A stretch of 64,000 bases of DNA from contig CM119372.1 of the NCBI GenBank assembly GCA_051294905.1, positions 19,718,001-19,782,000 on the forward strand, read 5' to 3'. The notes beneath the pieces are model-generated. The model searched no databases. It worked only from the letters and a program-made list of their open reading frames with translations, and had not been told where the DNA came from. A program made the translations under genes and the position numbers. Shown here in pieces: positions 22,092 to 55,848 of the stretch (position 1 is its first letter; every line of letters starts with the position of its first letter). Source of the stretch: Botryllus schlosseri. Taxonomy: Eukaryota.

Positions 22092-23186
22092 TAGGGTTGC
22101 CATACGTCCGGAATTTCACTGTTCAAACTAGCGTCCGGGAGGAATTTCTAAAATATGCCAAATGTCCGGAATTTTGAAGACTTGACGTAGGCTCATAATT
22201 TTTCCGTAAATCAGCATAAAAACAGTATTTTGTAGGGAATATTTATGCTGATGCATAATATTTTTCTTCGCGCTGTGCGCGATTTACTATTACATTTATT
22301 GAATTTGATATGGAGACTACCACCTCTCAAAATCTGCAATAAAATATAAATATAAACAACCTTCATTTACTGGAATAAGCCTAATTGTAATCGCAATTAT
22401 AGGAGAACGGTATATTCCTAGAGATCGTTAAGGCGGTTTAAATGCTTCATTCAAATTCAAAGAGAGTGGTTCCAAACGGGAGGGGGGTCGCTTGCCTTTA
22501 TTCTGGGGTTTGAGAATATGTTGAACGTTATCAGCTTACAAATTAGCTCGCGAGTAAGTCTGAGCAAAGATGCTGACTTGTTTTAGTAATCAGCTCGTCA
22601 AATTTTGATCTGGGCAACGGAACATTTTCAAATTGGAGATGGAGTCGCGACCATAAAAGGTTGGAAACCACTGGATGTGGGGTGTTTATAAAGCTCCGTG
22701 GTGCGCACCGGCATATAAGGCTGATGACTTAACGATGTGCAATTACGCTCCCTGTATTTTCGAACTCATTCATTATCCGCCACCAGCTCTACCGCTAACT
22801 CTGATCACGTGGGCGGAGAGTAGTATCTATATAGCAATATATGGAATATACGAATATTATTTACAGAATTCATTCCAATAATTCAACGACCAGATATGCA
22901 TATAAAAACCAAATTGATATAGCAAGCACCCCCACCCAGAAGTTGCATCGATTACCCTATAGCGTGGGCTCAGAATAATTGTTTATGTGGGCGGGAGGAA
23001 GCTGAAAACATGTGCTTTCGTTCCCGATTATAAAACACACACAGCCACATACTCCTGAACCGGATCGTGACCACCTCTGGTCTATGAGCAAAGGTTTGCT
23101 AGTGTGACGTCATAACTCATTTTGAAATCCACTAGTGGGCGCTAAAGAGTGTCCGGAATTTGAGTTGCTGAAATATGGTAACCCTA
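22092..23186 (+). mobile_element. hAT-like MITE
   Basis: TIR TAGGGTTGCCATA / TATGGTAACCCTA; perfect TSD CCATATAG (22084-22091, 23187-23194). Confidence 0.88.
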
Positions 23187-23948
23187 CCATATAGCCTATA
23201 GCAGTGGTTCTCAACCGCCGGTCCGCGGCAACATTCTTGCCGGTCCGCGAGACATATTCCAATTTTATATCCTAATCGCAAAATGCAAGGTGATGTAACA
23301 ATAACTTCATAGTGTTAACTTATTTAGCAAATGCCTTTCAACTGACTCACATCACTAGCCAACGTCTCGAATACGGGGAATCAATTTCGATACGTTTGTA
23401 GTATATCCTGTGTAACGTAGAGATGAAAATACAACTGCAAAACAGCGAGGTGCGGTAATTATCAATTCCGTCTTGGCAGTCAGTATGACAACACAATTGC
23501 CACAGAAGCGATAGTTCCGGCCGGCGCGTCAGATGTCAACAAATCTTTAACATCGAGGTCTTGGTCGTTTCGCATTACTTGCGTTCGATCAATGTGTTGG
23601 TGCTAATTTCTCACCTGAGCAGCAGTATAGAAACGAAATAAATTGCTTATTTCTAATTCGCGCAAGTCAACAGCTAGTTCAGGTGTTTACATGCCTAGCG
23701 GAATTCAGGGTAACTGCATACCCAAAACCTTGTCTGGGTAGGCTATGCGCGGTATACGTAGCCTACCTGCGTCCGGCGTCAATGATCACAACACATGCTG
23801 CTGGTACAGATATGAATTGTTGTGTACAGACGATTGTTTGACCTGTAAGTGTCGAACTTCCAAGACCAGTTGTATGTGAACGCTAAGAAGACTTTGAGCA
23901 AAATGTAACGAAATTTGACCGTTCATTTTAGTGAATATTGACATTATT

Positions 23949-25904
23949 ATGGAGTGTAGCAAACGGAAATGTATTGAGCATTTCTTTCGAGCGAAGGCCA
24001 GCAGTCAAATTGAAGTTAAAGGGTCTACCAGCACAGAGGAAGGATGTACTTCAGATTTACCACCTAGCGTGAAGCGGTCAGGCAATGCTGATATGGCTTA
24101 CCCAGAAAGCAAGAAGCGAAAAGTAGACTTCACAAGGCAGTACGATAGTATGTACTTATAGAGCTCGGATTTGCTATTGCTCCAAGCAGTGAAAAAGCAC
24201 CACTTCGCATGTGCTTGGTTTGTAACAAAATACTTTCAAACGATGCCATGAAGCCTTCAAAGCTTACTCGACATTTTCACTCACTGCATGCCGACCTCGT
24301 TGGGAAGCCTGTTTCTTATTTTAAAAGGCCACTGTACAAAGTTGAAAATGAAAGAATTTTACAAAAGATGACAGCTACTGATAAACATCTTCTCAGATCA
24401 TCTTATATAATTGCCCTCCTAATTAGCAAAGCGAAAAAGCCTTTTACTATTGGAGAAGATTTAATAAAACCATGCCTGTTAGCAGCTGCGAAAGAGGTTT
24501 TGGGTCCGGAACTAGCTAACAAACTTAAAGCCATACCACTATCAAATCATTCAATTCAAAGGAGAATATTGGATGTGGCAGTTGATGTGGAACAACAAGT
24601 TATTGAGCTAGTAAAGAATTCGAAATATTTTGCTATACAACTTGACGAATCTACGGATTTGAGTAATTGTGCAGTACCTGCTTGCTTTGTTCGATATGAA
24701 CATGAAGGTAGTATCATTGACGAATTTCTTTGTTCCCTGCAACTACCTGGACGAACGACCAGTTCAGAATTATTTCGATCTCTCGATACGTATGTCCAAG
24801 AACAAGGTTTAGATTGGGAAAAATTCGTCGGTGTTTGTACTGACGGTGCTGCTAACATGACGGGATGCTATTCGGGTGTAACTGCGAAAATTGAAAAAGT
24901 GGCAAACACAGATCTGCTCGTTACACATTGCATTCTTCACAGGGAAAATTTATGTGCCAAAAAATGTCTCCTGAATTGACCGAAGTTCTGAACGGTGCAG
25001 TGAGAATTATAAATTATATACGTGGCCGAGCATTGCATTCAAGGCTTTTTGAGACTTTGTGTGATAGCCTGGGTGCGCAACATCAACATCTTTTACTTCA
25101 TGCAGAAGTAAGGTGGCTCTCGAGAAGACGTGTTCTCACTCGACTATTTGAGTTGAGGGAGGAAGTCAAGCAGTTTCTGTTGGAGGGAAATTCTCCACTA
25201 AAAGAACTCATATCAGATGAGATGTGGACCGCAAAGCTAGCGTATTTAGCAGACATATTCAACCGCATGAATGAGCTGAATAAAGTCGCTGCAAGGAAAT
25301 CACACCAACAAATTTACGCTGCGTAACAAAACCGATGCCTTCAAACGCAAACTGATGTTTTGGAAGAGCAATGTTGAGAAAGATGATATTGATATGTTTC
25401 CCTCTTTGGAAGACGCCGTTTCCAATGCTTCCATAGACACACAGGAAATATTTGCTATCATACGTTAACACTTAGAGCAGGTATACAGGTCAGTTTTGAC
25501 AAATATTTTCCAGAAAGTGTAGACCCGCGAAAGGGAAATTACTGGATTGTTAATCCTTTTACAACCGACATAATAAGTGTAATCTTAAAAATATTGAGAA
25601 AGAATCGCTAATTGAGCTTTCCTGTGATGCCACCCTGATGTCTAAGTATAAAGACGAACCGTTGTCACAGTTTTGGATATCACTGAAAAATGAATATCCC
25701 GAGCTCAGTGATAAAGCTATGAAATTACTCTTTACTTTTTCCACAACATACCTATCCGAAAAAAGCTTTTCATCATTATCCCTCATCAAGACCAAACAGA
25801 GAAATCGTGCGGATGTCGCTGCTGTACTTCGCCTAGCAGAAACTTCAATTGAACCACGTATACCACGAATAATATCGAAGAGACAGGAGCAAATTGCTCA
25901 TTAA
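23949..25904 (+). pseudogene. hAT (Buster/ZBED5-like) transposase pseudogene
   Basis: ORF pieces 24209-24979, 24928-25326 and 25638-25904 carry CLVC..H...H (BED finger), FAIQLDESTD, VCTDGAANM, HCILH, HAEVRWLS and FSTTYLSEKSFS (hATC). They are broken by several frameshifts and stops. Confidence 0.92.
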
Positions 25905-26756
25905 CTTGAAGTTTACATTCTCCATTTGGAAGGGATGGCTATACGGCACTGCAGGCTACGGTAAAAAGATAAACTCGAGAAGAGGATGATTTCTCCTCAT
26001 GTTCTCGTCATTGATGACTTACATTGATTCTTTAAATTTGGCACCATATTCAATTACAACCGTAGCCTATTGATGTTTGTAACTGAAATTATCATGATCA
26101 TTTGAAAACACCGTGCACGTATAGTTTCAAGTTATTTCCTACGTGTAGGAAAGGTCGTCTGTACTTGTGTCGTTAGCAAAGCACCTCGTGTTACTTTCGG
26201 AGATTTATCGCCATTTCATAATCAAATTAGGCTTTGTTCTTCCAAATGATCAGTTGGAAGTTTCGTCATATTTCAGTGATTTTACATCTCAGGCGTGGAA
26301 TGCAAGGTATTGTGAGGTTTAGTATGCCGGTAGATGACAGAATATGCCAAAGCACTATTTCTGTGCTGTGTTGTGCTTTATGAGAGGGTGGTGGGGTGCG
26401 ATTATTTCATTACCCATACAAATATATACATTTGTTTTCGATATTTGGTGAATTTTTGGTAGGAATGAAGTTGGCGACCTGCTGTGTACCCCGCCTTCTC
26501 ACTGATATATCGTGACTCTCTGATGCAATCTTGAGGATCAGCGGTGAACAAATCGGGGAGATATTGATTTTCTCTGAAAAAGTTAGGCATATCGGGTCAT
26601 AAGACACCCCAGACTGCGATGTCATGATGGTGGTACCGGTTATGTATAGGCCTAGGCCAGCATCATTACTCGTTTTCACGGCCCAAGGGACCTTGTTCTA
26701 GTCTTCGGAAGGTATATAAATCTGAAATAGGAGAATATATTGTCCAAATTGGGAAA

Positions 26757-27067
26757 GAGTAGAGTAGCGTAATGGTTAAGCGTCCGGCTTCTTGATCGTT
26801 AGGTCGCGGGTTCGATTCCCGGCCGGGTCAGACCAAAGACCTGATTAGAAACACTGGTATCCATGGCTTCCCTGCTTGGCGCTCATGCATTACTGGGATA
26901 GCGTGGAGGGGTGGTGCATGACTTAGAAAGCCGTAAAGGCTATATGTGCACTTCCTTGTCCAGCGGCATATGCACATCATGCACATGCGCAGATCGTGTG
27001 TATGTGTATCATGACTCGGTGCATATGCCGCAAAAACATCAAGGACAAAAATAAACTACGTCCTTCC
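26757..27067 (+). mobile_element. tRNA-derived SINE, family 1 (Meta-domain-like core), nested in the Buster element
   Basis: Pol III A box TAGCGTAATGG and B box GGTTCGATTCC, followed by GGGTCAGACCAAAGAC...GGTATCCATGGCTTCCCTGCTTGGCGCTCA. A second copy is at 37755-38605. Confidence 0.8.
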
Positions 27068-27210
27068 GTAATCATATTTTGGGTTGATTTCCGTTTTCGA
27101 AGACCCGCCGGTCCGCCGACTATTTTTGGAAATTTTACCGGTCCGCGAGGTGAAAAAGGTTGAGAACCACTGGCCTATAGCAATATAGCGTTATGCGCGG
27201 CCTACGATAT

Positions 27211-27273: not shown

Positions 27274-30200
27274 ATGGAATTATCAAAAAAAAGAAGACAG
27301 CTCTGTCTAAAACCGCGTGGACCAAACAACGGATTATCACGCCTGCCAAACTTCAGACCTTCTACCATAGGCGCCGAACGCTAATTCTCCTTAGGCATGC
27401 GAGTTCGATGACGTCACAAAGGAATGACGTCATGATCCGACGGAATTGAAAATTAGGGATAATATTGCATCAATTCATGAGAGTTAAGTGCCTGCATAAA
27501 TGCCGATTATGCAATATCTTCGTGTTAACAAACTTGCGCGTATGATAGGCTTGTCAACGAGTCCGGAAGTGCTGTCAATTAACGAGTTCCTGATCGCTAG
27601 CGAACAATTAAATACGCGGCTTATCAACGCGTATTACGTAACCTCGGCGACGATTTGCGCAAGGCAAAATGTCAGAGTTGTTATGGAATGTGTTCTATAA
27701 TGGCACCGATTTCAGGTTGTTCAAACCTTTCCCGTCTTTTACAACTCAAGCCTTGACAGTTGACACACATCTTCTGATGGTTATGTTTAGGTATTAGCGG
27801 AATTCACTTACGCATGCACGGCGCACTCACAATCGCACCTGTCTGCGGACATTCGATGTTATTCAGGTCAGCGATGTCGCTCTTTAATTACAATCGCTAA
27901 CCAATAAACACCTAACGGCATTGTCACCAAGCCATCGAGAGATTGGAACTAACGCATGGTAGGCTCGAGAGATGGGAGCCAACGCATTCTCGGCTCTAGA
28001 CGTGATAGTTGGCCAGCGATGATATCTTTTGTACCAGGCCTGTTGCAGATGCGATTGTGTAGGCAAGCGATAATATCGTGCGCGCCAATGCAGATGCGAT
28101 AGTGCAGGCAGCGATGGCACCGGACCTACTGCTGATGTGATTTCATGCTCTAGGCTTGTCGGAGACGCGATAAAGCAGGCTGAAAACGCTGATTGCCAAT
28201 CCAAAACGCTGATTGCCGAGCGCACGGCAATCAATGACACAATTTCGCGATCATCTCAGCGGGAGATCACGTGATTCACGTCGCGTTACATTGTGCACAG
28301 ACAAATCTCGTTAATTGGCAACGCGCTTTTAGCTAATTGGCCGCGCGCAACGGGTTACCTCACTCACATGAGCGGTAGCAGGTAATGTCGTAAACGGAAA
28401 TACATTACGATTCGTTCTAAATAACACAATCGGGGTTTATGCCGATTCATGCCAAACCGAATTCTAGGCATGCCGCATGCCTAAAAAAATGTCTAGGCAT
28501 GCCTGGCATGCCTTGCATGCCCAGGTTCGGCGCCTATGCCTTCTACCGAGAATTGTCTGTCAGTGTCGACCTATTTACGATTGAAATGTACCAGGCTGAA
28601 CTATGGCTTCATTATGGTGTTGGCAACATGCTGTGTTTCTATGGCGGTCGGTGTTCACGTAACTGAACTCCAAAGAGTAAACGACGCATCAAGACATTTA
28701 GTTCAACACGTGTATCAAAGTTACAAGAAACCAGTGACGTATCTAAATCAGATCGCAGTGAACTTGGATACTAACGACCACCAACTTGCCGCAGCGCTTG
28801 CATCAAAATACGGATTTATCTTCAAGGGCCAAGTGAGTATTTCACTACGTCAAGAACTTCGTAAATAATGAAAGGAAGGATTACGACCGGATATTGGAAA
28901 GTCAATGCCATCCAATACATTATGACAAAATGTCTCGCTCAAAGCGGCGCTTTGAAGATTCATTTCGTAATTATGATGCGCGACGCTATAATACCACATC
29001 TTCAAATTAAGCGGCTTTACATCTTTCGAGGCGCGACCGTCATTTAATAGCAATATTATATCCGAATAGATCAAACCCTTGAACGGGTGGTATCTGTTTG
29101 AGGACAAGCGGATAACCAAACGCTCGATCAGTGCGGCTCATCTACCCCTTTCAATGACCAGACTCGAAAAAGACCGACATGTAAGGGCGTAAGAATGGAA
29201 ATTACCCAGTGCTAAAAACATTGATACTATTTTAATTCAGGTTATGGTGGCAGAAAGGTTAAAGACGTTGAAACGAGTTCGTAGAAATCGCCGCCCTACT
29301 CTGTCGCGAGACCTCACTGGGCCATTAGGAAATCCGAACGACCCCGCTTGGAGATGGATGTGGTACATGGTTTGTTGCGTGATAATTCTTATAATGCCTA
29401 CGCTTTCGAAAAATAAGGACGTTGTAACATTCAGATTCTGCGTAGATTTGCGCGATCAACTATGTATGATTTTTGTATTGAAGACTATGTATGTTCGCGA
29501 TGACTGTGGTAGCGCTTGGATAAATGCATCATTACTAGGGCCATTTAAAGTCATTAAAGTCATATTTTTTTCTATGCATCAGTAAGTCGTGAAATCAATT
29601 TTAACGCGAAAACCACGCCCCTATGGGGTATATTAAGAAAGTTATTAAGTCATATAAAGTCATCTTTTCCTGGTTAGGTCATATTTGAGTTACAAAGTCA
29701 TATTGTTATATACTTTAAATAAAAAGTGGTGAATAGAAAGCGGTGAAACAATTAAGCACTAAGAAAGTGAGGCAATTTCTCATTGAACGAAGGCAAGCTG
29801 TAAGGTTAGCCTACATAACACTACAGTCACAGACCTATGAGGTCACACATTGCATTATGAGGTCACACGTTGCATTGTGTTGCTACACAATCTGTTTTAC
29901 TTCTGTGCACTGAAGTAGGACGTCATTTGAAGTTCAGTCAGTGGGTAAGCAGGCTAAAAAACTCTACCTTGGTCTAGTTATATACAAATGCATTTGGATT
30001 TGAATAAAATAGTATTTATGGTGGGCACCACTATAATAAATAATTGAAGAATTGATCACAGAAATATGCCTCCACTACAACAATATTTCAAACTTGATAC
30101 GGAAAATGGACCATCAGAGAGGCTAATGCTGATCTAAATCCCTTGATTTCAGAAAAGATCCGCTTGAGCTCAAAAATTACATTAAGAAACGATGTGAAAC

Positions 30201-33200
30201 AAATTATGGAGCTACAAAGGCAAGACATTTCACCAGCGCTGAATGCAAAACTGCAGAAGTGTCAGCCCACATCAGCGTCTGTGGAGCGCTCATTTTCCTT
30301 ACTAAAGTCATTTTTACGTCCAAATTGTCACTTTAAAGACTTCAATATTCCATACTACATGAAACTGTACTACAACAGTGGTTTAAAATAAAAATGGATG
30401 CGTATTACTGTTATGTTGTGTATGTTTTACTCGTCAGTTCCATGAGTGACGTTGGTTACATGTAAAAATGCACTATTTTCACATAAAGTCCTATAAAGTC
30501 ATAATTTCCATAAAATAAAGTCATATAATTGATTTTTTACTGTCATATAAAAATGGCCCTAATCATTACTAATGAATCATTCCAAAATATGATTTTGAGT
30601 GTTTAAATTCCGTGAACTGCCACTTGGTAATATTAATTCCTATACGCTTCCTAGAAATATGAACGTTCTAAACTTTAAAATTCTGCGTAAATTTGACCGA
30701 ATCACTATGCGTGATTTTATGTGTATTTAGGGCTGTGCAGTGTGCAGTGTGCATGTTCCGTCTTCACGGATAACATAAGCTCTCGGGTAACACGAGAGCA
30801 ATACGCTCATCAGCGTTGAACTATGCGCGGTTTCATGGCCATATATTAAAATTCTAAATACATTTCGCGCGATCAACTACGCATGATTTTATGTGTATGT
30901 ATGTTCGCGACAGCTCTGATAGTAATTGGCTAACGACATCATCACTAATTAATTGATATAAAATGCTATTTCGAGTGCAGGGAGATCGCGGTTTTGATTT
31001 CCGAGGTCTCCACATTTTACGACTTATTTTCAGAGCGCAGCACAACTGAACGATCATTGAATATACACTATAGCAATACCCTACTCAACTCAAGAGGACG
31101 CACTGTCGTCCGGAGTCCCAACACAATCAGTGTATACGGCCTTCAGCTTTGAGGATTTCCTGTGGTGATCTTCATCTATTCGAACAGCACTGCGGGGGAG
31201 TGAACGACAGCGAATGCCCTACCAGCATGAAAATATCCGACGCTTGGCGGGTGGGATATTCCGGCAAGGGTGTCGTAGTCACTATTCTAGACGATGGGAT
31301 CGAGAAGAGCCATCCCGACTTGCAACATAATTTCGTGAGAATAGGACCGGCGACACTACCTCGCCGCTTCCATCGACGAATGGCTTTTTTCACCGTTTCC
31401 AGGATCCTCGCGCATCCCGTGACATCAACGGCGACGACGATGACCCGACTCCGCGATACGACATCTCCAATGAGAACAATCACGGCACGAGATGTGCCGG
31501 CGTGGTTGCTGCCGTGTCTGGAAATAACATCTGCAGTGTTGGGACTGCTTACGAGGCAAAGATAGGCGGTAAATACTCTTGTTCTTTCACGGTACATTTG
31601 TTGGCGACAGACACTTTAAGTAACCAAACTCTAATCAGGCATTCGCATGCTTGATGGTGAAGTCACCGATGCCGTCGAAGCCACCTCACTGGGTTATCAC
31701 CGTGAATACATCGATGTATATAGCGCATCTTGGGGGCCGGAGGATGACGGAAAAACCGTTGAAGGTCATTAGTCTGAATCAACTGAGATTTCCACGATTT
31801 ACCGTCGTCGGTTACTGACACAGGCCCAGGGGAGCTTGCCAAAGCAGCCTTCGAAGAAGGGGCAAGACTAGGGCGTGGCGGTAAAGGATCAATATTTGTA
31901 TGGGCCTCCGGTAATGGTGGTCTTCACAACGACTCGTGTGCATGCGATGGCTATATCAACAGTATATATACAATCGCAATCAGCAGGTAAATATTTCGTT
32001 GGGGGCGACCCTTAAATTACATTCTTTTATCACGATATGTCAGCGTTCCATTAAGACCGGTATCTTTGAAGATAGCAAACATATTTTCCGTCACGTCTTG
32101 CACGTTAGTTTTCATCCGGTAGTCATTCATACGCCACGAGTTCCATTTAAACTAAAGCGCGATTTTCGCCGACATCAGTAATATTGCAATCGAAGATCAA
32201 ATTTGTCACATTCAAGCAGCTGTAAGTGACATACCTATAATAATTTCAACCAGTCTCGTTTTCGACACATTGAACTAACTGGTCAGAAGTAGGGGGCTCG
32301 GCAAAACGAGTACCTGAGTTAAAATTGGTCACCACTTTGAGTCGACTCCAGAATTACCCGCTTTTTTGCTATACTTCTGTGGTGTTGACTAAAACAAGTT
32401 CATCGCCCTGAGTCGACTCCGTAATGACCCGCTCGAAAGTTCGCATTACCTATTTCGCGTCATTTATGCCGATTTTCACTTGACTATGCCCATTAGCATA
32501 GCATGACTTTTTATTTAGTCAACACTACAGAAGTACTGAAAAAGGTGGGTTATCCGGGAGTCGAGGCGAAGTGATGACCATTTTCTTTAGTCAACACAAG
32601 ATTTCCAGTAAATATAATTAAAATGGTTGAAACTAGTTCAAAATGTGGGTGGCATGTTCAACGAAAGCCATGCGCAGCAGCATGCTCCTACGCCACTAAC
32701 TGTAAAAGCTGCAAAGGAGGAAGAATTGCCGAAATTGAGGGCATTTAGGCGACATCGGAGGACATTTTAAATTTTCCGAAATGGACAAATCCTCATAAAG
32801 GAGGGCGTATGGTAACATTAAGTTGTAGGCTTCAAATTGAGTCGAGCATTCATATCACTCATTGTGGCGTGGTACGAGTGTGAACGACGTGTAAAGTTCA
32901 AATACGTATGACGCATTAAAGATCATTTGGTAATTTTTTTACTTTACCTATTTCATTGCACTTTGTGATAATGCTGTGGATTAATCATATCTTCAAACAA
33001 ATGAATTTCCACTATTATGCGTAGCATTGTACCGCTTGCTTCGTATGCTATAATACACGATGTTTCCGGATTTCCACGACAGACAAATAGTAGAATTCCC
33101 GAATACTCGAGTCCTCGAGTACTCAAACTCGAATCGGTGTTTCCATAACCTGATAGATTCGATAAATAATTTGACCGGTATAACACAGGCAATGAAGCGC

Positions 33201-39200: not shown

Positions 39201-42200
39201 TGGTTTTGGGGGTTTTGAAGAGCACTTATTCAGAATATGATATTCGTTTTTTCAATTTATCTCTTGTTTTGGAGATAACCCATTGGGAGGTTTTGACCAG
39301 AATCATCCATTTTCGCTGTAATGGCTAGATAGAAGATCGGCTCTGTCATACTATATAAAGTTTAGAAATTCAATCTATTTGTCATGTTTACACCCAGAAG
39401 ACTCTTTTAAATCAAAATACATAAATAAACTCCAGTAATGTATATAAGATTTACCAAGATCAGGGGTTGCCAACCGTTTTGCCATTCACGGCCGCATTTC
39501 GACTACTCACGTAGTCTGGCCGCATTCCAGGGCATCAGTGTTGGGATGACTCGAGTCATGACACTAATAATGTGATATTCGTAATCAGCAACCTCGAAAA
39601 CCCCAGAAACGGCTCTCAGATGTTCTGCCATTTTTTTAAAAAAATTTTGTTGACCAGTGTTATTAAGTATTATTATAAATAAATTCAATCTGACAGGACG
39701 GTAGCGGTTGATACGGTCAATTAAACTAAATTGGAAATTATTTATCATTATTATTAGGCAGTGTAGTAGGGGTGTCATGTCAAGGCAATTTTGCTTTATG
39801 TTGTTATATACGTATATAGGAAGGCAGTATCATAACAATATTGACTATCGACACTCGAAACTTGGTAGTTACGTAGGCCTGTCTCCAATTACCTGGACCA
39901 GGCGAACAATGATCATGATCACTAAGGCAAGATTTTGAAAGTTTTGCTACTTTTTTTTACACCTTCTTACAGCTTTCTATATACTCAGAATTTATGTACT
40001 ATGATGTTTCAAGCTGTTTGGAGGGATTTTATAGTGCAAATTTTCATGGCAAGTTTTACTTCAATTTTTATCAAATATTGCGTGAAAATGAAAGGGAAGG
40101 ATGTAAAAACATGCTCTAATCTATTTATAGTATGGTTCTATTATCTTTGATTTGCATAACAATGAGCTATATATGATGGGTTAGGTGCATCTGAATGTTA
40201 TCTATGACACAATGGCTTGCAAGCGAGAAGTTCAACCACCCCTGCCAAGCACGACCGTGCCAGTACAATATGTATATAGATCGCTATATTAATTCTGTCG
40301 TTTAAATTTGAGATAGTTTCCCATTTCACGTAGCCCAGGCGAGACCGTCGAAAATTACACTTTCACTGGGTCACCCTATTCAGGCTATTGATTTTGTTAA
40401 AGTCGCTAAGAGTGGGTTTTTCTGCAATGCTTTACGTCAACTTTGCAGACCTAGGGGGTGGGTGGGTTATTTTACTTGTTTTAGGGGGAGAGGGCTATCG
40501 CTATGCTGTTTGGCTTTTTTGGGGAAAATTATTCCCTCATCGCGTAATTTTCTTGCTGTGTACCGAAAAAAGGTGGATTTTGGCGGTTTCGCCCGTCGCC
40601 AGACCGCCAGTTGAATGCCAAAGTAACAAATCTGACAGCAAGGCACGAACTAGGTTATACAACGGAACCTTTTATTTCGAGTATTTCATGCCCTTATAAT
40701 TCAACAAAAATTATAAATGTAACTTTTTGCTGAAACTTTTGTTAAAATTAAGTGCAACATTCTCGCAATTTTAGTGCAACAAAAACTTGCCCCAATGATC
40801 GCTCGCAGTCGCTAATATATCAATGTTGCAACTTTTTAATGCTGTAAGCTTTCACATTTTATAGTGTATGACTGGTGACTGCATCATATGTGATGTGCCC
40901 ATAACAATGAACATGAATAATTGTAATTGTTCCAATTGCAAAGCTTCATGCTTCCTGTGTGGACTTGAATCGGGAGAAATATCGTAGTCTACGATGATGA
41001 CGATGTACTTTGATCAAGATATATGTTCATTGTTCAGTATTGAATATATCGCCCTATTCTCATTTTGGGGGAGCCCTCGGTGATGCCAATCGTACCCTGC
41101 ACCTTTACAGATCTGGCGACAAGTCTAGGGAGGGGTTCAAAAATTGGGATTTCATGACCACCCATCACTGGGGCGAGAGCCCACTAGGACTTTGGCGCTT
41201 GAAAATCGAAGATGACCCCTACCGACTGAAATATCGGCATCCGTAAGTGCACCTTCTTTTCACCCTACTCGCAATCGCAAAATCTCACTTCCCTTTGCAG
41301 TGGCCGGGATCTGTCCGCCAGTAATTTCCTTGTGAGTTGGCAGCTGATATTTTACGGTACGCTAGACCACCCGCAGCCCAACTTTTCGCTCGACGCTTGC
41401 GAAGGTGAGAGAAAAATTTTCATTTCGGTATTTACACGTTGCAGATTTTACTTTGCGTTCATATAGCTTACCCGCAAAATCAGTGTCATGCCGAGTGCGA
41501 CGGGTGCTGCGGTGCCACCGCTATGGAATGTAAATCCTGTAAACACGCCTCGACAGCATCGGGCGTGTGCATCGCATCGTGCCCGTCGGATTATTTTCTG
41601 AATGGGACAACAACGATATGTCAAGTAATAGATTGAAAGTGTATTGGGTTACAATGTTTTAGTAAATTGTTGCCTTTTTTGTCCCGATTCGTGTTAAGAC
41701 GCGCGAGTTCGCTGATATTATTGAAGGGCGATAACTAAGGCGAAACGCTGTGTAATCGCCACAATGTGAATTTAAATAAGTTGGAATGAAAAATTAATTT
41801 GTCGGGACGATTATGTTCTCTTTCTCATTTACGATACTTGCGAAACAGTACTATAGGATTTTGAAGTGAAATTTCGAATATTAATACGAATTCGAATTGG
41901 TGCCGGATTGTGCATTCTGATCCCTTCAGGATTGTGGTGCGAAACTGAAATCCGTAACAGTTACTGTACGTAATTTGAAAGTATCAAACATCCTTCGTTT
42001 TTTTGAAGTAACACATATGCTGAAGATATTTAAGCAAAAAGGTCTATAGTCTAGATCAGTGCTTTTCAACCTGTGTGACGGTTCGCACTGGTGCGAATGA
42101 AAAAAATGCAGTGCGAATGACGAGGGTGGTGCGAATGGTGCGAATGAAAAATCCGGATTATAGTGCGAATGAAAATCGTGAATAATTGTTAATTTTTCTG

Positions 42201-45200
42201 ACGTGGAATAATTCAAATACACGTAATAGGAAATTCAAGGGCAGTGTAACTGTTGTAGTTGAGACGTAATTGTAAAAACATGTTTAACTTGACGCACCAC
42301 TAATCGTAGCTCTCAGAAGCCGTAGTGAATTAATATTTTCGCACTATAATTATTACGTAATCAAAAGCCTGGTTTGGAAGCTGGTGTTGTAGCAGACATA
42401 CAGTATATCATCCCGTCTGAGCCTATGTCACAGGCTGTAAAAATGACGTCAAAATGACTTTCTGCTTTCTTTTGCTAAACAATCGTCATATTTTCGTAAT
42501 AACTGTTCGATTAGCGCGATGCACGAGGATAGTAGTAAATACCATCATTACAGACTCACATTTGCATGTTACTGTAACGCAAATTTTTACCCCTTCAGGG
42601 GTTATTAAAGTATGGACCACATGGGTATAATTTTGCGTCGACGCGGTGCGAGAGCTATCTGTTAATAGGTATGTAATATTTTTGCAAAAATCCGGCGATA
42701 TTTTTTACATATCCAAGGTCACTGTGTTGGCTACTGTAGTCAATAAACGAGACACGCTCAAAATATGGCTTGATCATGAGCATCAGCCGACGTTTGGTTT
42801 GAATTCATGATAAGATTTGTCCGAATGTTTTTTTCTGGAAAGCATGGATGAAGACTGTTGGGATGAACTATAGTGTAGAGGTGTGCAAGGAGAGAGTTCA
42901 GGCCTATGAGACTCATTCATTCCGAGGCCAACCCCTTCTGCGTCGGGGCACATGAAGACGTAAAGTTTTGGCTAACCGACCGCTGATAAAATGCGGTCCC
43001 TTCGCAAAAAAATGACCGTCACTGGATGGCCAAACCTTTCGATATAGATATATTCCGTTGTCGGCACGGAATAGTCCCGTTCTTGCAATCTAAGTAGACA
43101 GTAGTACGACTGTTACACGCAGAGGAATTTACTTCACCCTAATTTGAAATCACGAGCGTCAGACACATTTTATAGAGCTGTGTTGGGTAGAATTGTGGTG
43201 TGCGCGTTCTGTATGTCATACATGTCCGTAAAATCGTAGCACACTACTGTAATACTATAGAATGTAAACGTTTACATTCTATAGTAATACTAAAAATGAA
43301 TTCCTTTTCATGGGTGAGGCTCGGGTCGCGAGATGCCACAAACATTCAGATTTTGGTGGTAGTCTAAAAAGCTGCTTCAAGGTTAATACAACTGTCATGA
43401 ATTTTCAAGTTAGATTTAGCTAAATAGCCGAACAAACAGTATCGTGACTTTATTTGCTCTTCTCATATATTCGCGAGACAGAAATTGGGAAATCGAAAAA
43501 AAAAAACAGAACACAAGTTGGAGCAACGTATCGTAAGGTAGCGAGCTCTAATGTGCCTACTCTCCTTGATGTTACTGCACCTTACTTACCAATACATCAG
43601 GCATAAGCCTGAACACAAGCATGTCTATTTTCACCCTATCGACAAACTGGACCCTCCGGGACCTTTGTGTCATCTCCCCAAAACGATTTCTGCCAGCAAG
43701 CGTTTTTCACTCGCGGAAAATAGCTGTGTTTTGGATAGGAGTGCAGAACAGTTCTTAAGACCAGGCCATCCAAGCACCATGGTAGGGGTTATTGTACAAA
43801 AGCCAACAACTTGCCTGACCGACAAGCGTTTTAGTGAAATGGTTGAAATCAAAACGAGGGAAAAGAGTTGCCCTATTACTGAGACACTTAATGGCCTAAA
43901 AGCTATGCTAGCCAATTTGTTGCACATCTGAAGAGAATATTCTTACGTATCTTCATCTTCTTTTTGTATAACAATTTTCGGTTGGCTTGTGCGAAGGAAA
44001 TTTATTTTCCAAAAAAAGTGCGAATGAAGCTCAAAAGGGTCGAAAAGCACTGGTCTAGATAGCGTAACGGTTGGCTGAATTCGCATAATTTTACGGTAGG
44101 CCTAATCGTTCACAAAATTAAGAACTGTTGCCTCGTTATGGCACCACGTTTTTAGCTAACCATGATCATGTTCAATGTTCATACATGCGTCAAAGCTGGA
44201 TAGGCTAGATATACCGCGACTAACTCCGTAATTACTGTGTTGTGGGTATTAATCATACCCGCAATATCGTCAACTTCGTCTTCAGTACAGCACCGATGAG
44301 TAATTGCGCGGTTCAAAAAGCATGATCACTGTGCAATGTGCATGTGCAGTTCACAAAACTGGACTTATGTGAATATGGCTTATGTGAGCTGAACAATTTA
44401 ACTAATCAGGTACTGGACGAATATATAAGCGACAACAAAGCCTAAAAATGTCATCTTGCTGCACATGTCGATTTGGAGACGCGTACGGTGCAAAACACCG
44501 TCTCTTCCCTGAATTATAAGAGCTAAATTCTCGATTAAATCGTAAATTAAATCGTAGCGCGAAATTGGACAGTGTGTTATTGTTAGGGTTGTGATTAAAT
44601 CAAAAATCAATTTAAAACAAACATGTTCTATTCTTCTGACTGTCTTGCTAGCGCGCCTAGCATGGCTGTTTTTGACTCTGTCGATCAAGATGTTCTGCAG
44701 AGCTACCAGGAATGCCAACTGGTCAATACCATTTATTACACTCTGAAGAAAAACTACGCCAGCGAGCAAGGCGCTAGGATGGTCTGCATGGATGGCGCCA
44801 CAAAGAACGCTGGCGAAGTCATTGATAAAAAGACCCTGTTATTCAACCGATCGAGACAAGCTGTTATCACCACGGAGTTGATCGAAATTATATCGGGAAT
44901 GACAGCTCTTTAATATCGATATCTAAACTGTTGTCGACATGTTTCGGAGAAGGCCCTTTTGCTGTTTTTTCCAAGCCATGACGTCACGTATATTCAATTG
45001 TCACGTCATAATGGATCGATATTCACAATTAAAATATAGGGTAAATATAGCTCCTTTGACGAAATAGTCTTTCCACCCGGACCAAAAATATCTTTAACCA
45101 GGACTACATCGTCTTGTAGCATTTTTACGGTCGGCGTTCATCATCATCAGAACATTCGTTCCGTACCAATGATCTATATTAACGTACTGTAGCTATCAAA

Positions 45201-48200
45201 CCGACTATTTCGAGGGTCCCAACCATCCCATACCCTATATCTCGGCTATATCGGGTGGTAATCGTCGTCCGTATAGGCTCGCACAACATGTTTTTGGAAA
45301 GTATTTACACAAATATGGCATAATTATACAACTTGAAACGTACTACGTTTAAAAAAAAACATTGTTTAAAACACCGTGTGAAACATGTTTTAAACAAAGT
45401 CTTTTAAACAACCATTTGTTTTGAATGCAACCCTGGTTATTGTGTATGCCTACGAATTGTCGCGGTTCGAGCTAGTCAATGCGATGTTCGGACCCCCTGG
45501 TGTTGCATGAAAGAAGGCAATTAGTGATTGGATGATCGCTTTCCAGTTTGTAACTATCAGTTTTGTGTATTCATTCATGTGTGCTTGGTACACTCGTATT
45601 CCTGAATTGTCACACAATGTCAATTATGAGCGTGTAGTTTAACTTGTTACTGACACGGTGCATTGCGTACTTGTACAGTTCACGGCGTCGATTCGTTTGA
45701 AGAAATACCTTTATATTCCAGTATAGTCATGGCTGAAACAGCACTTCGTCAACCCCCACCCCAAAGCGTTGTTCTCGGGGCCCCCATAGGGTGATGAACC
45801 AAACTTCTGAGGGCATCGCCCCACATACACCCCATTGGGATCTACGTTATCACCACTATTTATGACCGAATTTTGTTATACTCAACAGTCAGCAGTCGAC
45901 GAATTTTTGTGGACGAATCGCCAAACGCGCGAAGTATTTGTCCTATGCGGTTCAGAAGGCCAGCACAGGAAGATTTGGCTCCAGCCATTTATGCGCCTTT
46001 AGAAATTTAGACATAGCCTATGCATATCTGTCAACATAAGAGTAGTTCTTTTCGGTCAAGGTTTTCTCGCTCCTGATGTTTTGGCACACTTCTCGGTGGT
46101 TCTATGCTGGCGTAAACTTCATATGTCATGATGCGTCGTGGCGTGATATTGGCCGACGCCGAAATGCCTATTTCTACAAACCATGCGTATTTTTTATTGG
46201 GGGAAGGGTACCCAACAAAGACATCAAGACACCAAAAAATGCTCTATAATTTATGTTCATTCACAAAATAATTTTGGTCCCACTTCGAACTTGCCTCCTC
46301 CCGAATTGGAGCGTTGGGGTACGGCAGTTACGGTTCTGCGTAAAATTGATCGGCACCGAACGGACTGATAACGAGGACACCAATATAGAATTTCAAACCG
46401 TTGGGTAGTTGGTGGAAATCGGATTTCTAATGATAAGGTCGCGACATGCGCTCATATGGCTCTTGGTGCTGTTACATTTGAATTATCGTACCAGATTGAA
46501 TTCAACTGTTTGGCTTGATATTACCGAGTGCAGTGCCGGTAGGCCTACCGCAATTTGTATACTACTGACTCACTAAAAAGCGTAATCGTATCTGACGGAC
46601 ATATATATATATACATATGTATAAACCAGCCCTGCTCAGAGACATGCAAGGAATGTTCGGGACCTTACGCACAGAACTGCACTGCTTGCAACATCGGTTT
46701 CTCACCCGTTGACGGGCGCTGCATCCAGCAATGCTCCAACGACTCGTTTCTGGACAACGGTGAAAGAACTGTGTTCTATCGAAGCCCCGAACCATCCATT
46801 GATATTGCGATTCTAATTCAGTGACACAAAGTTGCATGCCGTGCCACCAGAGCTGCAAGACGTGCTCGGGCAGTCGTGAAAGCTGCACATCATGCAAGGC
46901 CGGATTCCAGTGAGATTTGTCGCAGGTTTTTGGTGAGACTTGGCCACCGCAATATTCTTTTCTTCGCAGACAAGTGGGTAATGCGTGTCACGCGGCATGT
47001 CCGCAAGGGACATACATCGCGTCGTATCAAACTGGCTGCGCCTTTTGCCATGATCATTGCCTGGAATGCATAGGACCCCTCGAGGGGCAGTGTACGAGAT
47101 GTGAAAACGGGATGATCCTGCATACGATGCGATGTGTAAGAACTTGCCCAACTCGTTCCTATCACGATAGGGATCGACAAACATGTCGCAGGTGAGTTGC
47201 TAGTATTTGCAATTCCCCCGCTTTACCGGAAATTACGACGACGATATAATCTCCTCAACCGTATGCCTACGTTCTAATTTCCCGTACATGTACAGTACAC
47301 GTTTATAAAGCGATATGCAACACTGCGTCAGTGGTATCATCAGTGTTATACTGACGCCATAAAGCGAAAGCGCAGTGTTACCTAGTTTCTCGTGTTATGC
47401 TTTTTTGATGGTGAGTGGGAGTGGTTTAACTGTCGACTCTCTTGGCACTAGGTCTATAACGGGAGTGCAAAGTTTATTAAAATGTCTATTCTATAACAAA
47501 GAAAAGGAACTAGATCAGGGGTGTCAAACAGACGGCCCGCGGGTCGCATCCTGCTCACCATACGATTTCATCGGGCCCGCGAAGTAGATTGAGAAATGCT
47601 TGTATCAAATAGTCCCCCAAGACAGCAAATGTCGATTGTGTTCATAGGTCATATTATAGCCATTCGGCGGCAGCGTTCCGATTTCAATCATGTCACCAAT
47701 AGGGACTAGTCGATGACTTTGACACCAGATTCAAAGAACGCAAAAAAGTCAACACTAAGTTTTAAGGGTAATTGGACCTAAAAGTAGTTAGAGAAAACGT
47801 CAATGCGAAACCATTATATAAGCAGGTTACATGCATAATATAATAGTTACACAAAGAATACAATTCCAATAGGCCTATCAGTGGCCTCCAGTGAAATTCG
47901 AATTACATTTATCAATAATGAACAAAAATTTGCGTTTACAGTTAAATATTTTGTATTCCTCACAACTAGTGCTGGGCACAATGATTCGAGTACTCGAATC
48001 TGAATTGAGTATTAATTTTAATGATTCGAGTCGAGTAGTGAAAGACGATTTTTTCGAGTACTGACATTACATGCTCCTCGCCAATAAAAGGGAATTTATC
48101 GACGAGAATTATAGTTTTGATAGTATTTTCCAATGTGGAAGGCTTAGAACCCTGATTAGCCGCATCGAAGCATACGAAACACAGTACAAATGCTACCCAC

Positions 48201-49379
48201 GTTGCGGGAAATAACGCATTTCCGAAGTCATAATCATCCCATAACCTTGTCACGAAGTACAATGAAATCGGCGTGGTCGAAAAAATACTAAAGTCTCTTT
48301 AATTTGTTGGATACCAGGCATTATATTCTTTGTTGTGGCATAAAAGGTACATATTTGAACTTTGACATATTTCATTATGTCATGGCGTCATAATGAGTGA
48401 TACTCGAATACTCGACTCGACAGATTAATCTCAAGAATACCAAATCACACGTGTTATGATTTTACTTTTCCGTATGCATCAGTCGGAAAGTCGATTCCAC
48501 TCTTCTCCATCCACAGGTGTCACAGGACTTGCAAAACTTGCGATGGCCCGTCTGCAACCGACTGTCTGAGCTGTGACGGTAAGAGTAATTTTATTCCAAT
48601 CATCGAGCTTGTATCGACTAATATTATGAATACATCCACTAATAATACTTTGAGCGTGTCTGCGGCGCATATTTGGAGAAGTATCAACTAATGATAAAAT
48701 TCCAGACTAATATATGGACTATGTACGTTCAAAGCACGATGTTGCTATCCCTTTAACATGCATTTGTCTTCTTTCGTTTCCATGCTGCCTGCCCATTCGA
48801 TACTGCGCTGCTCGTCAACCTACTGGTACTGTCTCTTGCATCGGCATATTTCTTCTGGGCGTCGCAATGCGGAACTTGCTAACTTTGGTGCTTTTTCGGC
48901 GTACATTTGAATCTATCACTGCTCTGTCGTTCACACTCGGACACGACGTAGGGTACAAGGATCGTTTCGATAAAAATACGTGCTTGATATTTGTGGGACT
49001 TGACATGTGTCGCCACCAAGAGATCAGCATTCTGTGCTGTCAGACTTGTATGCTCTACGAGTCTGGAGAGTTGTACGTATCCGCGGGCCTACCTTCGTTG
49101 AGTGAATTGAATTCGACGAATGAATTGAATTCGACGAGTATCTTGGACGACGACTACCCTGACGACTATTACGAGCATGCCTACGCGGACGCAGATAGTA
49201 AATACGGCGACGCTACAGAAGGCAACGTCGACAACGAACTTCAGCTCCCAGAAAGAACCGGCGGTTCCGATCCGCAAACGCCTATGATTGTCGACAGTGG
49301 TATTGGTGTCGAACAAAGTCAAGGTTCAGCAGCGATAACAGGTAGGGATGCGGAGCAAGCGGCTGACGGCGATGCGTGA
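27274..49379 (+). CDS. PCSK5: Proprotein convertase PC5/PACE4-like, copy 2; first coding exon split by a transposon. Exons 27274-27365 [TE 27366-28538] 28536/28539-28832, 29070-29180, 29241-29369, 31188-31334, 31403-31568, 31639-31764, 31824-31986, 33867-33963, 34168-34490, 34563-34742, 41111-41242, 41301-41404, 41467-41624, 46630-46759, 46822-46909, 46970-47191, 48517-48578, 48952-49379
   Basis: Hydrophobic signal-like segment ([16 protein letters not shown]) and prodomain (YLNQIAV...[25 protein letters not shown]). Primary cleavage site KRVRR followed by [11 protein letters not shown]. Same catalytic, P, Cys-rich and PLAC exons as copy 1, with no stop or frameshift from 28536 onward. Confidence 0.88.
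27366..28538. mobile_element. Non-autonomous DNA transposon (hAT-like) inserted in coding exon 1 of convertase copy 2
   Basis: 14-bp TIR CATAGGCGCCGAAC / GTTCGGCGCCTATG, perfect 8-bp TSD CCTTCTAC (27358-27365, 28539-28546), and subterminal GGCATGC repeats. Confidence 0.93.
29536..30561 (+). mobile_element. Internally deleted hAT element
   Basis: TIR TAGGGCCATTT / AAATGGCCCTA; perfect TSD ATCATTAC; hATC remnant [15 protein letters not shown] (ORF 30143-30391). Confidence 0.9.
35975..37608. mobile_element. Buster-type non-autonomous element with nested MITE (36263-36560) and SINE
   Basis: Termini CAGGGGTGGACAA / TTGCCCATGTCTG; perfect TSD TTCTAAAG; GCGGGCCGC subterminal motifs. Confidence 0.85.
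36596..36865 (+). mobile_element. tRNA-derived SINE, family 2
   Basis: A box TAGCGCAGTGG and B box GGTTCGAGTCC followed by a non-tRNA body. An inverted copy is at 57545-57802. Confidence 0.75.
37755..38605 (+). mobile_element. tRNA-derived SINE family 1, interrupted by a MITE
   Basis: Close similarity to 26757-27067; the head GACAAGATAGCGTAATG is locally duplicated. Confidence 0.8.
38026..38541. mobile_element. hAT-like MITE with ACTCG-rich ends
   Basis: TIR TAGGGCTGGGCA / TGCCCAGCACTA; TSD ATCGTGAG/ATCATGAG. A truncated sibling is at 47967-48420. Confidence 0.85.
39158..39660. mobile_element. Tc1/mariner-like MITE
   Basis: TIR ACACTGGTCAACA / TGTTGACCAGTGT in an AT-rich site that is empty in copy 1 (~6620). 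Confidence 0.7.
39923..40794. mobile_element. hAT-like MITE, family A
   Basis: Similar to 562-1412; TSD ATGATCAC/ATGATCGC; empty site ATGATCGC in copy 1 (~6874). Confidence 0.85.
42057..44052 (+). mobile_element. Internally deleted Buster-type hAT element
   Basis: TIR CAGTGCTTTTC / GAAAAGCACTG; perfect TSD GTCTAGAT; GTGCGAATG subterminal repeats; hATC-like remnant [18 protein letters not shown]. Confidence 0.88.
44584..45435. mobile_element. hAT-like MITE carrying a captured host gene fragment (Pack-type)
   Basis: Termini TAGGGTTG / CAACCCTG with perfect 8-bp TSD GTTATTGT (44576-44583, 45436-45443). A related sequence without the cargo lies at ~53511-53670. Confidence 0.85.
44652..44913 (+). 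pseudogene. ATP5F1C: Fragment of mitochondrial F1 ATP synthase gamma subunit (C-terminal ~86 codons plus stop)
   Basis: [20 protein letters not shown]...[46 protein letters not shown] matches the conserved gamma-subunit C-terminus. It is preceded by an acceptor-like TTCTTCTGACTGTCTTGCTAG. Confidence 0.92.
47967..48420. mobile_element. Truncated MITE (family of 38026-38541)
   Basis: The left TIR TAGTGCTGGGCACAATG is present and the right TIR is missing. Confidence 0.75.
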
Positions 49380-50894: not shown

Positions 50895-53800
50895 AAAGGA
50901 AATACCTAAGACTTTATTTCCCGAGCTTTGGAGACTTCACCGACCTGAAGACGGCGACACCAGTTCGCTCGTAGTTCGGCACGTAGCCAAAGTAGTATAT
51001 ATTCCTTTAGTTGGCTGGATATCGCCACCAACTCTTACGCAAAGTGCTTCATGTTTGGTAACTAGTCTGTTTGTGAAAGCTCTTTCACAGTTGCAAGCGA
51101 TTGAAAACCTACATACACTACACATGCACGCGGAACTTGATTCTACTCCTGATATAGAAATGATCGAGACCTGACGATTTTCGGTTTTGTCGATATTGGC
51201 AACGGGTGACGTAGAGCCCGCGAGTAGTGTTCGCGAACATCAGAAATACCGACTCTCAGGTCACATGAGGTACTCTTGCCAGGGTTTGGACCACCCTGTT
51301 ATAAGAGAGAATGAGAGAGAGAGAGTCTTTATTTTTTAATTCAACCAAAATACATAACAAACATACAGCAATGATGGTGGCACAGAAACTCCTAATCCAA
51401 TCCAAATCCGATGAAATTTATCCAGATCCGGGTTTTTCAAATCCTAATCCTAATCCATGCTCATTGCTCATCTCTGATAGTAAGGCGATAATTTAGTACG
51501 TACCGGTACGTGTAGAATTTGAACCCTGCAATATCGCTAGATACGGTTGATCGGCTGTAAAATGTCAACTGATAAGTTCACCGAAAGTGCGAAATCTACG
51601 ATCCAAACGAAATGTAGGCTGCAAAGAAGTTTCAACTTTGTAAACAATTTTGACATTTTTTGACCTAACGCTACAATTTTGACCTAATTTTGACTTTTTG
51701 GACATGTCAGAAAAAGATCGCCCTATTAGTTATAATAAAATAAAATTCAAATATCTGTGGTCAGCTCTTGTATTCCTTACAACGCACACGGAGCACGGGC
51801 TAGCGCCAATACACGGCTAAAAGAAAGAGAGCATAAAAATATGACAACTTATATCGTCGCCAGAGCCACTTTTTAGCCGTTTATAACTGCTGTATTCAAC
51901 CGCGATTTCGAATTATTGCCAATTCCATTGTTTGCGAATGACGGTGTAGCTAGAATAGAATCCATATGATCCGTAATATCATGTAATATACTATTGCGTA
52001 CAGAGGCTTGATAATAAAGTATTCAAATGAATAGCAAGGGCATGGTTTTTGATGGAATATTTTGGAATAATTTTACTTGTGCTTATAGAAAGCGATCCAA
52101 AGTTTTGAATCCGACCCGCGACGCAAGTTGCGTTTGACACATCTGCCCTAGGGTGTACGATACACCCGGTTTAGTAGAGCCCGGTCTAGGCCTACACCGG
52201 AATTTGCCAACCTTTTCGGCCAAAGGGCCACATGAGATTCACGAACCAGTGCGCCGGCCAGATTAATGTTGATGACCTTTTTAGTCGTCCAATTTTCGCC
52301 CCCTTTTTTCTCAAAATCGCCCACTGGGGGGCGATATCGCCAACGTTGGGAACCACCGAATTAGGTCGTCCGGGGCCTATGATATTCGTAGGCCCCGGGT
52401 CGTAACTTCTACCGCGGCAACTTTGCGCCAGATTTGGCCTGTTTTTTTTACCGGCCGGGTAGCTGCTGACAAAAAATAAATCACCAAGTTCGCTTGCGAT
52501 GGCCTTGAGTTTCTTATGTCCTTCACGTTAGCTCAGATGTTGTCTTTGCAAAGGTTAATCTTTTCACTAGCGGCCTTGTGCTGAATTCGGCATAACTTTT
52601 TCCTGCTTATCAGCAATTTGGTCGAGAGGCTGTCGAGAGGCCCAACGAAATCGTCTCGCAAGCCTCACTTTATCAGGGGGGAATTTCTACGGAAAGCATT
52701 TAAACATACATCTAGCTAAAAATATGTCCAAAGAAACAAATAATAGTAAAGAATTAGTTTCATACTTAACAGTTATACCATAAAAATCTGAAAATCTTGT
52801 GAACCCAGTGTATCTTCCGACACAACTCTAAAGCCAGATTTCCCCCTAAAAATTTCAAAATTACCCAAAGGGGGAATCCCCCCGACACAAAATATCTGAC
52901 TGGGGGATATTGCGCACGTTTTGTTCGATTTGGTGCTCGGCAAGCGAACATCGATATTTCGGAAGGTGGTGTTTGCAAACGAACCCTGTAAGGTTCATCA
53001 CTCTGAATATTTTATAAAATAGCAGATTTTACACTAATCATGACATCTTTGATAAAAATGTCTTATTTCTACCTCCGACCACTCTCTGTTTGACGGCGAC
53101 ATCAAGACGGAAATAGGATAAACCCATGTAATTATTCGAAATGCTATAGATTCTTGACAATTTTGGTTAAAACATCGCATTATTCCGCATGTGAATAATG
53201 TAGGTAGCTGCCTCTCTCACCGCTATGTGGTTAGCCCTGAAACAGGCCAGAACAGGGGTCGGCAACCTTCAGGATACAGGAGTTATCTGAACCTATATGC
53301 AGGTATATGAAACCAATTAGGGCCTCAAACCCAAAAATATCGATGACACCACATACAGTTTCTAAGTTTTAGTACATATTTCCCAAAGTATTTATGAAAT
53401 CAAAAAAATAAACCAGTGATTTTAAACTTATTGTAGCGATCTTTCCGTGGAAAGGTGGTATTTCAAGATAAATATTAAACCGGCAACTTCGATTCTATTA
53501 CGATCACAGCTAGGCTTGGATTTAAAACAAAATCAATTTAAAACAACCATGGCCCTTGTTTAAAACATGTTTTTATTGGTTTTTTTTCGAGTCATGACGT
53601 CACCAATCTTCAATTGTGACGCCACAGTGAATTTACATTGGCGATTGAAAATATAGGGTAAATATGGCTCATGCTTTCAATTGATAGAAATGACTAGAAA
53701 TTAATACTCCGCAGAATTTACTTGGCCCGCCAATTTATTTCCTGCTTCCTAGAAAAATAACTGCCCACCTCTGGGCTAGGAGTTATCAAGTCATTAAATG

Positions 53801-55152: not shown

Positions 55153-55848
55153 CAGGGCCGGCCAACCCGTGGCCCGCGAAGGTTTTGAGATGCCCGCAAG
55201 GTCATTTCCAAAATTTTTAATATCATCAAAAATGGATTGCACAGATTGTGAACTTGCAAGGCCAACCAAAAATTTGATTATTCTGGCCGCAACACTTGAT
55301 GTGATGACTAAAATATCAGTTCCGACGCATTGACAGATCCATCAGCCATTCACATATTGGTATATCTTCGTACACTACAATAAAGCAGAATAATTTGCGG
55401 TAGATTTATCAAAGGTAAAAATTTTCTATAAGCTTGGCGCAACATGTTGTCACTCGATTTCTTGTTTTTAATATTGTTGCCCTTTTGTGAAAATGGAAGA
55501 ACACGTATCAGATTGAGTCTAACTATATTCGCGATTACGAGACAAAATATCGTTCAACATATGCGACATTGCGTTTTCGCTCGCAGTAAGACCGTTGGCT
55601 ATGAAACCTAGGCACGAAATGATTGACGCATGTTGGTCGCATCTTTCGATATCGATATGTCAATGCGCCGAATAGCCCTGTCCTCGCAAAATTAGCCCAG
55701 CGATGTACAACAGGCCCGCAATATAGTCAAATGACAATATTATTGACCTATGAACTTAAAAACTTTTCGCGCCTCGCGCGGCTATTGGCCCGCGCGATAC
55801 TTCGTCAATCGAATGTGGCCCGTTGGCTGAAAAGGTTGGCCAGCCCTG
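55153..55848. mobile_element. Buster-type MITE
   Basis: TIR CAGGGCCGGCCAACC / GGTTGGCCAGCCCTG; perfect TSD TGCTACCG. Confidence 0.9.

Follow-up and report, generated by a model that had tools for sequence, protein, structure and literature searches.

We analysed a window of 64,000 nucleotides from Botryllus schlosseri (assembly GCA_051294905.1, contig CM119372.1, positions 19,718,001 to 19,782,000 of the forward strand), in which a DNA transposon of the hAT type carries a piece of the gene for ATP synthase gamma. The window contains two tandem furin/PC5-like proprotein convertase genes (2465-15793 and 28698-49382) with open spliced frames over 15 modelled exons and GT-AG introns. The element, at 44584-45435, lies inside a phase-0 intron of the second gene (41625-46629, 5005 bases), which holds at least one further hAT element (42057-44052). 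The element, its insert and the host intron are all described on the forward strand.

An 8-bp target-site duplication (TSD; GTTATTGT) flanks the element at 44576-44583 and 45436-45443, and the element ends (TAGGGTTG and CAGGGTTG) are alike at 7 of the 8 terminal bases and at 15 of the first 21. Seven pairs of ends with duplications were found in the window, compared with a mean of 0.02 (maximum 1) in 100 shuffles. The combination of an 8-base duplication and short inverted ends is a hallmark of hAT transposons (PMC3942097). Here, the 8-bp TSD and short terminal inverted repeats (TIRs) enclose a short, non-coding, high-copy body, as in non-autonomous hAT elements, with a length of ~540 bases when the insert is left out.

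Two contig sets (X1 and X5) and two RNA runs (X23, ~6% sampled, and X21, ~3% sampled) were aligned to positions 44300-46800 only, at 88% likeness. X5 comes from a sample other than X1; as its contigs extend over the flanks within the intron, we take it to be DNA. X1 is possibly the source of the window itself and is not counted as independent support. Unique flanking contigs have a depth of 14-19.5 in X1 and 83-99 in X5. In X1, the summed depth is 56 to 128 over the insert and 4.3e4 to 1.1e5 at the element ends (4.3e4 in the bin 44552-44635 and 6.1e4-1.1e5 across 44972-45475); these sums are not copy counts, and overlapping contigs inflate them. Five of the 15 joints listed (of 354) run from 44627 directly to 44963-44974, i.e. 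they come from family copies without the insert. The element is a real and very abundant non-autonomous hAT, similar to a MITE (miniature inverted-repeat transposable element). The initial annotation had proposed a TIR- and TSD-bounded member of a multi-copy hAT family, and the duplication, the ends, the depth and the insert-less joints all agree with this. So does the related left end that it placed at 53511-53670, which lacks the cargo (83% identity over 42 bases, 79% over 90 bases) and has no matching right end within the window. A search of open-licence papers gave no description of this hAT family.

Comparison of the ends, the depth and the joints at 44627 define the left element end as 44584-44627, which includes the TIR and the opening 9 bases of a subterminal palindrome. 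The X1 depth defines the remainder as 44950-45435, comprising an altered right palindrome arm, the body, an AT-rich hairpin at 45348-45425 (z -2.0; 4 of 200 shuffles equally good) and the right TIR. Family copies frequently break or differ at 45066, 45338 and 45422. In X23, 64 reads (agreement 0.84) show transcription of one family copy whose flank is consistent and which probably lies in the untranslated region (UTR) of another gene. At least 120 prokaryotic contig matches were listed for an 18-base element pattern; by blastn, those listed reached no further than ~32 bases, and we consider them chance matches. A 23-base pattern had 0 matches in viral contigs.

The insert belongs to ATP synthase gamma (Pfam PF00231, E 3.8e-27), the best named homologue being that of Styela clava (90% over 87 residues). 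An open frame extends from the element end to a stop codon at 44911-44913, giving 95 codons rather than the ~86 first counted, and the coding remnant with its stop occupies 44626-44913. The next 20 bases (44914-44933) are the first of the parent 3′ UTR: 76 X23 reads match to 44933 and then diverge from the window, with a median loose end of 59 bases. The insert thus consists of the final 95 codons with their stop, followed by 20 or more bases of 3′ UTR, much as the earlier description of a C-terminus, a stop and ~20 nt of downstream sequence had it. That description was also right that there is no poly(A) at the insert 3′ end and that ACATGTT stands on both sides (44621-44627 and 44937-44943). 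Position 44936, where the right end of the insert had been placed, is not established as that end: the mRNA departs after 44933 and family sequence is certain only from 44950. The right junction zone between them (44934-44949), delimited by comparing the window by hand with the loose-end consensus, holds the second ACATGTT and may be filler plus duplicated element bases, or may reflect a shorter UTR allele of the parent.

The left part of the insert had been read as the 3′ end of an intron, in which case the insert would be an intron end plus the whole last exon and the retained intron would prove capture of DNA. Positions 44636-44651 do resemble a branch point, a pyrimidine tract and an AG, and might act as a cryptic acceptor, but they are in-frame coding sequence that matches homologues. 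The stretch 44626-44649 translates as FYSSDCLA, in register with the homologues and identical at 5/8 residues to homologue P0002 and at 4/8 to Styela clava. Only one of the window's 127,948 8-mers, the stretch itself, attains its mean BLOSUM score against four close homologues, and the nine codons upstream of 44626 score about zero against the homologues. A 970-base X5 contig (record 10) matches 44625-44725 and has the RNA letters at 7/7 listed sites. Six X23 reads pass over 44636, and the RNA depth declines gradually toward 44625 with no step at 44652. We give the intron-plus-exon form next to no credence.

Within the window (44 kb upstream and 19 kb downstream), tblastn searches with four full or near-full homologues matched the insert alone. 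The upstream exons of ATP5F1C that would betray a resident gene are thus absent from the window, and we rejected the idea that the insert is part of a real gene with neighbouring exons. An assembly artefact was likewise rejected, since insert-type contigs occur in two samples. Contigs of the parent type cover 44625-44924 without an intron: an X1 contig (depth 34.7) over 44666-44779, a span read from its distances to its end at 7 sites; X5 record 10 over 44625-44725; and X5 record 12 over 44811-44924. A link contig has the parent letter at 44808 with 31 letters on each side, and could be a sister copy rather than the parent. Because the parent is intron-free over this span, no intron was kept or lost in the piece, and intron content cannot reveal the template. 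A copy of such length taken from DNA could equally consist of exon alone. Record 10 continues for 869 letters past 44625, and an intron may lie just upstream of that position.

The parent differs from the insert at 10 of 101 bases (record 10) and at 7 of 114 bases (record 12), and so shares the ≥90% identity used to recognize Pack-TIRs, in which a host piece of 100-5000 bases lies between both ends of one element, as it does here. The parent of a Pack-TIR should also be unique and have no transposon in the 100 bases at its flanks; here the parent depth corresponds to two haplotypes in X1 (34.7) and to about three in X5, and the parent flanks diverge from this element. Over 44696-44924, the X5 parent-type contigs have a depth of 280-282 (83-99 in the flanks), which may mean that the sample was mixed or that another duplicate exists. 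An insert-type protein was absent from the protein collection (23 matches, the best at 69%; exact look-ups negative). An exact 24-base insert pattern had 0 matches in metagenome contigs, and a protein-based metagenome scan returned 42 loci, all at ≤59% identity. A frame of 96 codons that runs into the insert starts at an ATG (44623-44625) contributed by the element; its product is absent from the protein collection.

Among the 40 differing letters listed (of 324), 16 are in the coding insert, and the counts that follow are minima. Relative to the RNA letters, 9 of these sites are synonymous and 7 are missense. Four of the missense sites have an RNA residue that 8/8 tunicate homologues share, and a fifth has one shared by the 4 closest. 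As the RNA residue is the conserved one, we place these five changes (~2.5% of 202 sites) on the insert side. At the other two missense sites, it is the insert that carries the residue of 5/8 homologues and the RNA that differs. In all likelihood the decaying gene piece merely fills the intron and is inert.

The letters of the family around 44627 form a 39-base palindrome, self-complementary at 36/39 positions (determined by hand; consensus agreement 0.73 and 0.81). In this copy both palindrome arms are altered, the insert begins 9 bases into the left arm, and few element bases were lost at the insertion site. At the left junction, the family match ends at 44627 and the parent match starts at 44625, a tentative overlap of 3 bases. 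At the right junction, CATGTT occurs 15-20 bases past 44933 in the parent UTR (consensus agreement 0.88) and 5-10 bases past it in the window. The chance of a 6-base match within 25 positions is ~0.8%, but the match was noticed post hoc and is also tentative.

On balance, we think it probable that microhomology guided the copying of the gene piece from the parent's long last exon into the palindrome, by gap filling or by a template switch. We infer a course in which a break or a stalled fork at the palindrome, near the left end of the element, would be followed by a switch to the parent's last exon at the 3-base match on the left. Some 310-320 bases would then be copied from the parent, presumably with DNA as the template, and synthesis would return to the element either where the six bases CATGTT match or by way of a short filler. 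Capture of this kind would not need the transposase. The absence of poly(A), an end inside the UTR, the short junction matches and the palindrome as the site favour gap filling from DNA, and the route corresponds to the gap-filling/template-switch route of Tan et al. (PMC8277862). DNA capture at microhomologies, as first proposed for this element, is supported in so far as there are short junction matches, including the CATGTT of the parent UTR; the retained intron offered as its proof is lost, the stretch being coding. Repair by the locus's own transcript (PMC12065846) was considered and does not fit.

Several observations weigh against copying from DNA at the palindrome. The insert is wholly transcript, without any DNA-only sequence, and comes from the 3′ third of a well-expressed gene, much as a retrocopy would. 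The parent is beyond the window, compared with 57% of Pack-TIRs at ≤15 kb from their parent (PMC8277862). The 3-base match on the left depends on an alignment edge and the match on the right requires a UTR shorter by 10 bases, while the 7-base repeat on both sides may be readable as the scar of a retro-insertion. In the related copy, 53520-53585 shows no folding advantage over shuffled sequence (z -0.02) and the left arm is changed, so that the palindrome is not universal; nor did folding support a hairpin at that related copy or at either junction. A sister version of the insert in the second run makes movement after capture possible. Finally, synonymous differences (9 of ~56 sites) outnumber missense differences (7 of ~202) to a degree that exceeds neutral decay alone, so that a divergent donor allele must be assumed; this suggests a donor unlike the alleles in the RNA runs.

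The same observations can be met, somewhat less plausibly, by an RNA or cDNA template. In this case the element would have been a mere landing site, possible but on the unlikely side, into which a reverse transcriptase (supplied in trans by a long interspersed element, LINE, or a repair polymerase) inserted the copy. A nicked end could, again with limited likelihood, have primed at the CATGTT of the UTR, after which ~320 bases would be copied and joined through 3 bases, doubling ACATGTT and leaving no poly(A). LINEs are capable of internal priming. Consistent with this, the insert is 100% exonic and 3′-biased, a 7-base direct repeat flanks it, and the UTR holds a 6-base match at which priming could occur. 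The parent is also well expressed (X23 depth ~90-125 across the piece, compared with 2.4 on a convertase exon). However, poly(A) is absent and the copy stops deep within the UTR; no exon junction is spanned, hence there is no positive sign of an RNA origin; and the alteration of both palindrome arms is not explained by a clean retro-insertion. Of the features of processed pseudogenes, a poly(A) tail is lacking here, the piece contains no exon junction, and of the 7-base repeat the right copy may come from the UTR. Retrocopies have been reported in Ciona, although sea squirts are described as having relatively few (PMC3136929). Tan et al. met the same ambiguity in one human case and filter such cases (PMC8277862).

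With either template, the capture could have happened elsewhere, the loaded element then transposing to the present site as a member of a small multi-copy Pack-hAT family. We regard this as unlikely. In its favour, the element is intact at both ends and in its target duplication, and the parent is distant. In addition, a 147-base X5 contig of one-haplotype depth (90) has window letters at 44808, 44829, 44831, 44843 and 44883, two of these five sites being missense, whereas window letters are absent from X5 at 44739, 44749 and 44818. The summed depth of window letters in X1 reaches 54-81 at 44829-44843, against 17 for one haplotype, an excess for which contig overlap may or may not account. The X1 insert-type depth over 44682-44749 is 17, equal to one haplotype (parent-type, 34.7), two diverged alleles of one insertion would fit X5 equally well, and no insert-type protein was found in the protein collection. 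Multi-copy elements were only 4 of 281 animal Pack-TIRs (PMC8277862). Two versions of the insert are present in the species, as alleles or as separate copies. No empty-site joint was seen among the 15 joints listed of 354. The element does carry a gene piece that is absent from its family; transduplication, the term first applied here, is not borne out in the sense of movement with the cargo, given the one-haplotype depth in X1. A fuller scenario can be assembled, in which internal priming led to reverse transcription of the 3′ end of a housekeeping mRNA into the fragile palindrome of a hAT MITE that was active, and this element, once loaded, went on to move. The first tunicate Pack-TIR would then be a segregating, multi-copy family with RNA-derived cargo, one copy of which brings a cryptic acceptor into a convertase intron. 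We consider it a long shot.

A further proposal was that the insert would form a poison exon. Spliced in as an alternative last exon, it would truncate the convertase after the first cysteine-rich repeat. The sense orientation, the open host frame and the phase-0 donor at 41624 stand, and a splice from 41624 to 44652 would indeed read R-A-stop. The AG before 44652 is also the most pyrimidine-rich of the 119 YAG sites of the intron (76%, compared with 47% at the true acceptor), with a YTRAY 12 bases upstream and an ATTAAA at 45028. However, the 'acceptor' is coding by origin, and three X1 contigs lack 44636-44639. Across the 16 sites the RNA is of the parent type: X23, with 29-126 reads per site, has 4 stray letters spread over 3 sites, and no insert letters were seen in X21 RNA (4-15 reads per site), a weak test given that the depth on the convertase exon is 2.4 (X23) and 0 (X21) and that the RNA animals may lack the insertion. 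Among the 15 joints listed of 354, none runs from the insert to 46630. Use of the exon is thus a possible reading only, and we judge it very doubtful.

Two observations touch the same stretch. The loss of 44636-44639, the putative branch point, from the three X1 contigs, which make up 15.2 of a summed depth of 78.8, is either an allele or an error. If used, either of two other AGs, before 44701 and 44710, would leave the convertase fused in frame with some 70 C-terminal residues of ATP synthase gamma; the pyrimidine tracts of these AGs are weak (52%).

As to the host gene, its closest named homologue is a convertase of Styela clava (83%), and the two convertase copies differ at 119 of 1856 bases of equal-length exons. 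The pro-domain exons of the first copy were not found within the window. Exon 48517-48578 of the second copy is 48 bases shorter, in frame, than its counterpart in the first (14064-14173), and the final part of the last cysteine-rich repeat is missing from it. Six further elements with inverted ends and 8-base duplications lie at 12475-13701, 22092-23186, 23202-27172, 29536-30561, 55153-55848 and, within the host intron, the 42057-44052 already mentioned. The one at 23202-27172, whose ends are of another type, holds a broken hAT-like transposase (24149-25904) that we take to be of the Buster group.

The kind of event described here is already known in animals, and the element with its gene piece is probably inert. 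It provides a tunicate example of the capture of a gene piece by a DNA transposon, and, judging by the junctions, a palindrome shared within a very-high-copy family may be a recurrent weak spot that could be counted genome-wide. It also cautions that a coding stretch can mimic a textbook splice acceptor, and that with exon-only cargo DNA and RNA templating cannot be assigned without more cases.

The initial annotation called such captures less often reported in animals, which understates their number. Tan et al. (PMC8277862) surveyed 100 animal genomes and describe 370 Pack-TIRs, of which 208 are hAT and 4 multi-copy, with a median insert of 224 bases, 13.4% exonic inserts, a median element loss of 4.6%, microhomology at the breakpoint in 68% of cases and a parent at ≤15 kb in 57%. 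Their supplementary data 2 gives 0 Pack-TIRs for Ciona (vase tunicate, ci3), and our search of open-licence papers found no tunicate Pack-TIR. With the single-copy animal cases of that survey, our element shares hAT ends round a piece of 100-5000 bases, microhomology (tentatively, 3 bases on the left and 6 on the right), little loss of element sequence and, as for several of them, a position in a host intron. It differs in its styelid-like ascidian host, in its exon-only insert and in a parent that is >15 kb away on each side as far as the window shows, where the homologue search matched the insert alone. Pack-hAT-N8_XT of Xenopus tropicalis similarly has a ~300-base exonic (UTR) piece in a non-autonomous hAT, but is present as three copies with distinct TSDs, compared with one site and hints of further copies here (PMC8277862). 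Turmoil-1 of Caenorhabditis elegans (PMC2572040), an older case, also has coding fragments, one of them exon-only, within an animal DNA transposon; it is, however, a multi-copy Harbinger element whose fragments lie in long inverted repeats, and one of these fragments keeps an intron, proof of a sort that the present piece does not offer. Finally, in common with 5′-truncated processed pseudogenes (PMC3136929), the insert is the 3′ part of a well-expressed mRNA, has a short direct repeat and is decaying, whereas it has no poly(A), ends inside the UTR and spans no exon junction.

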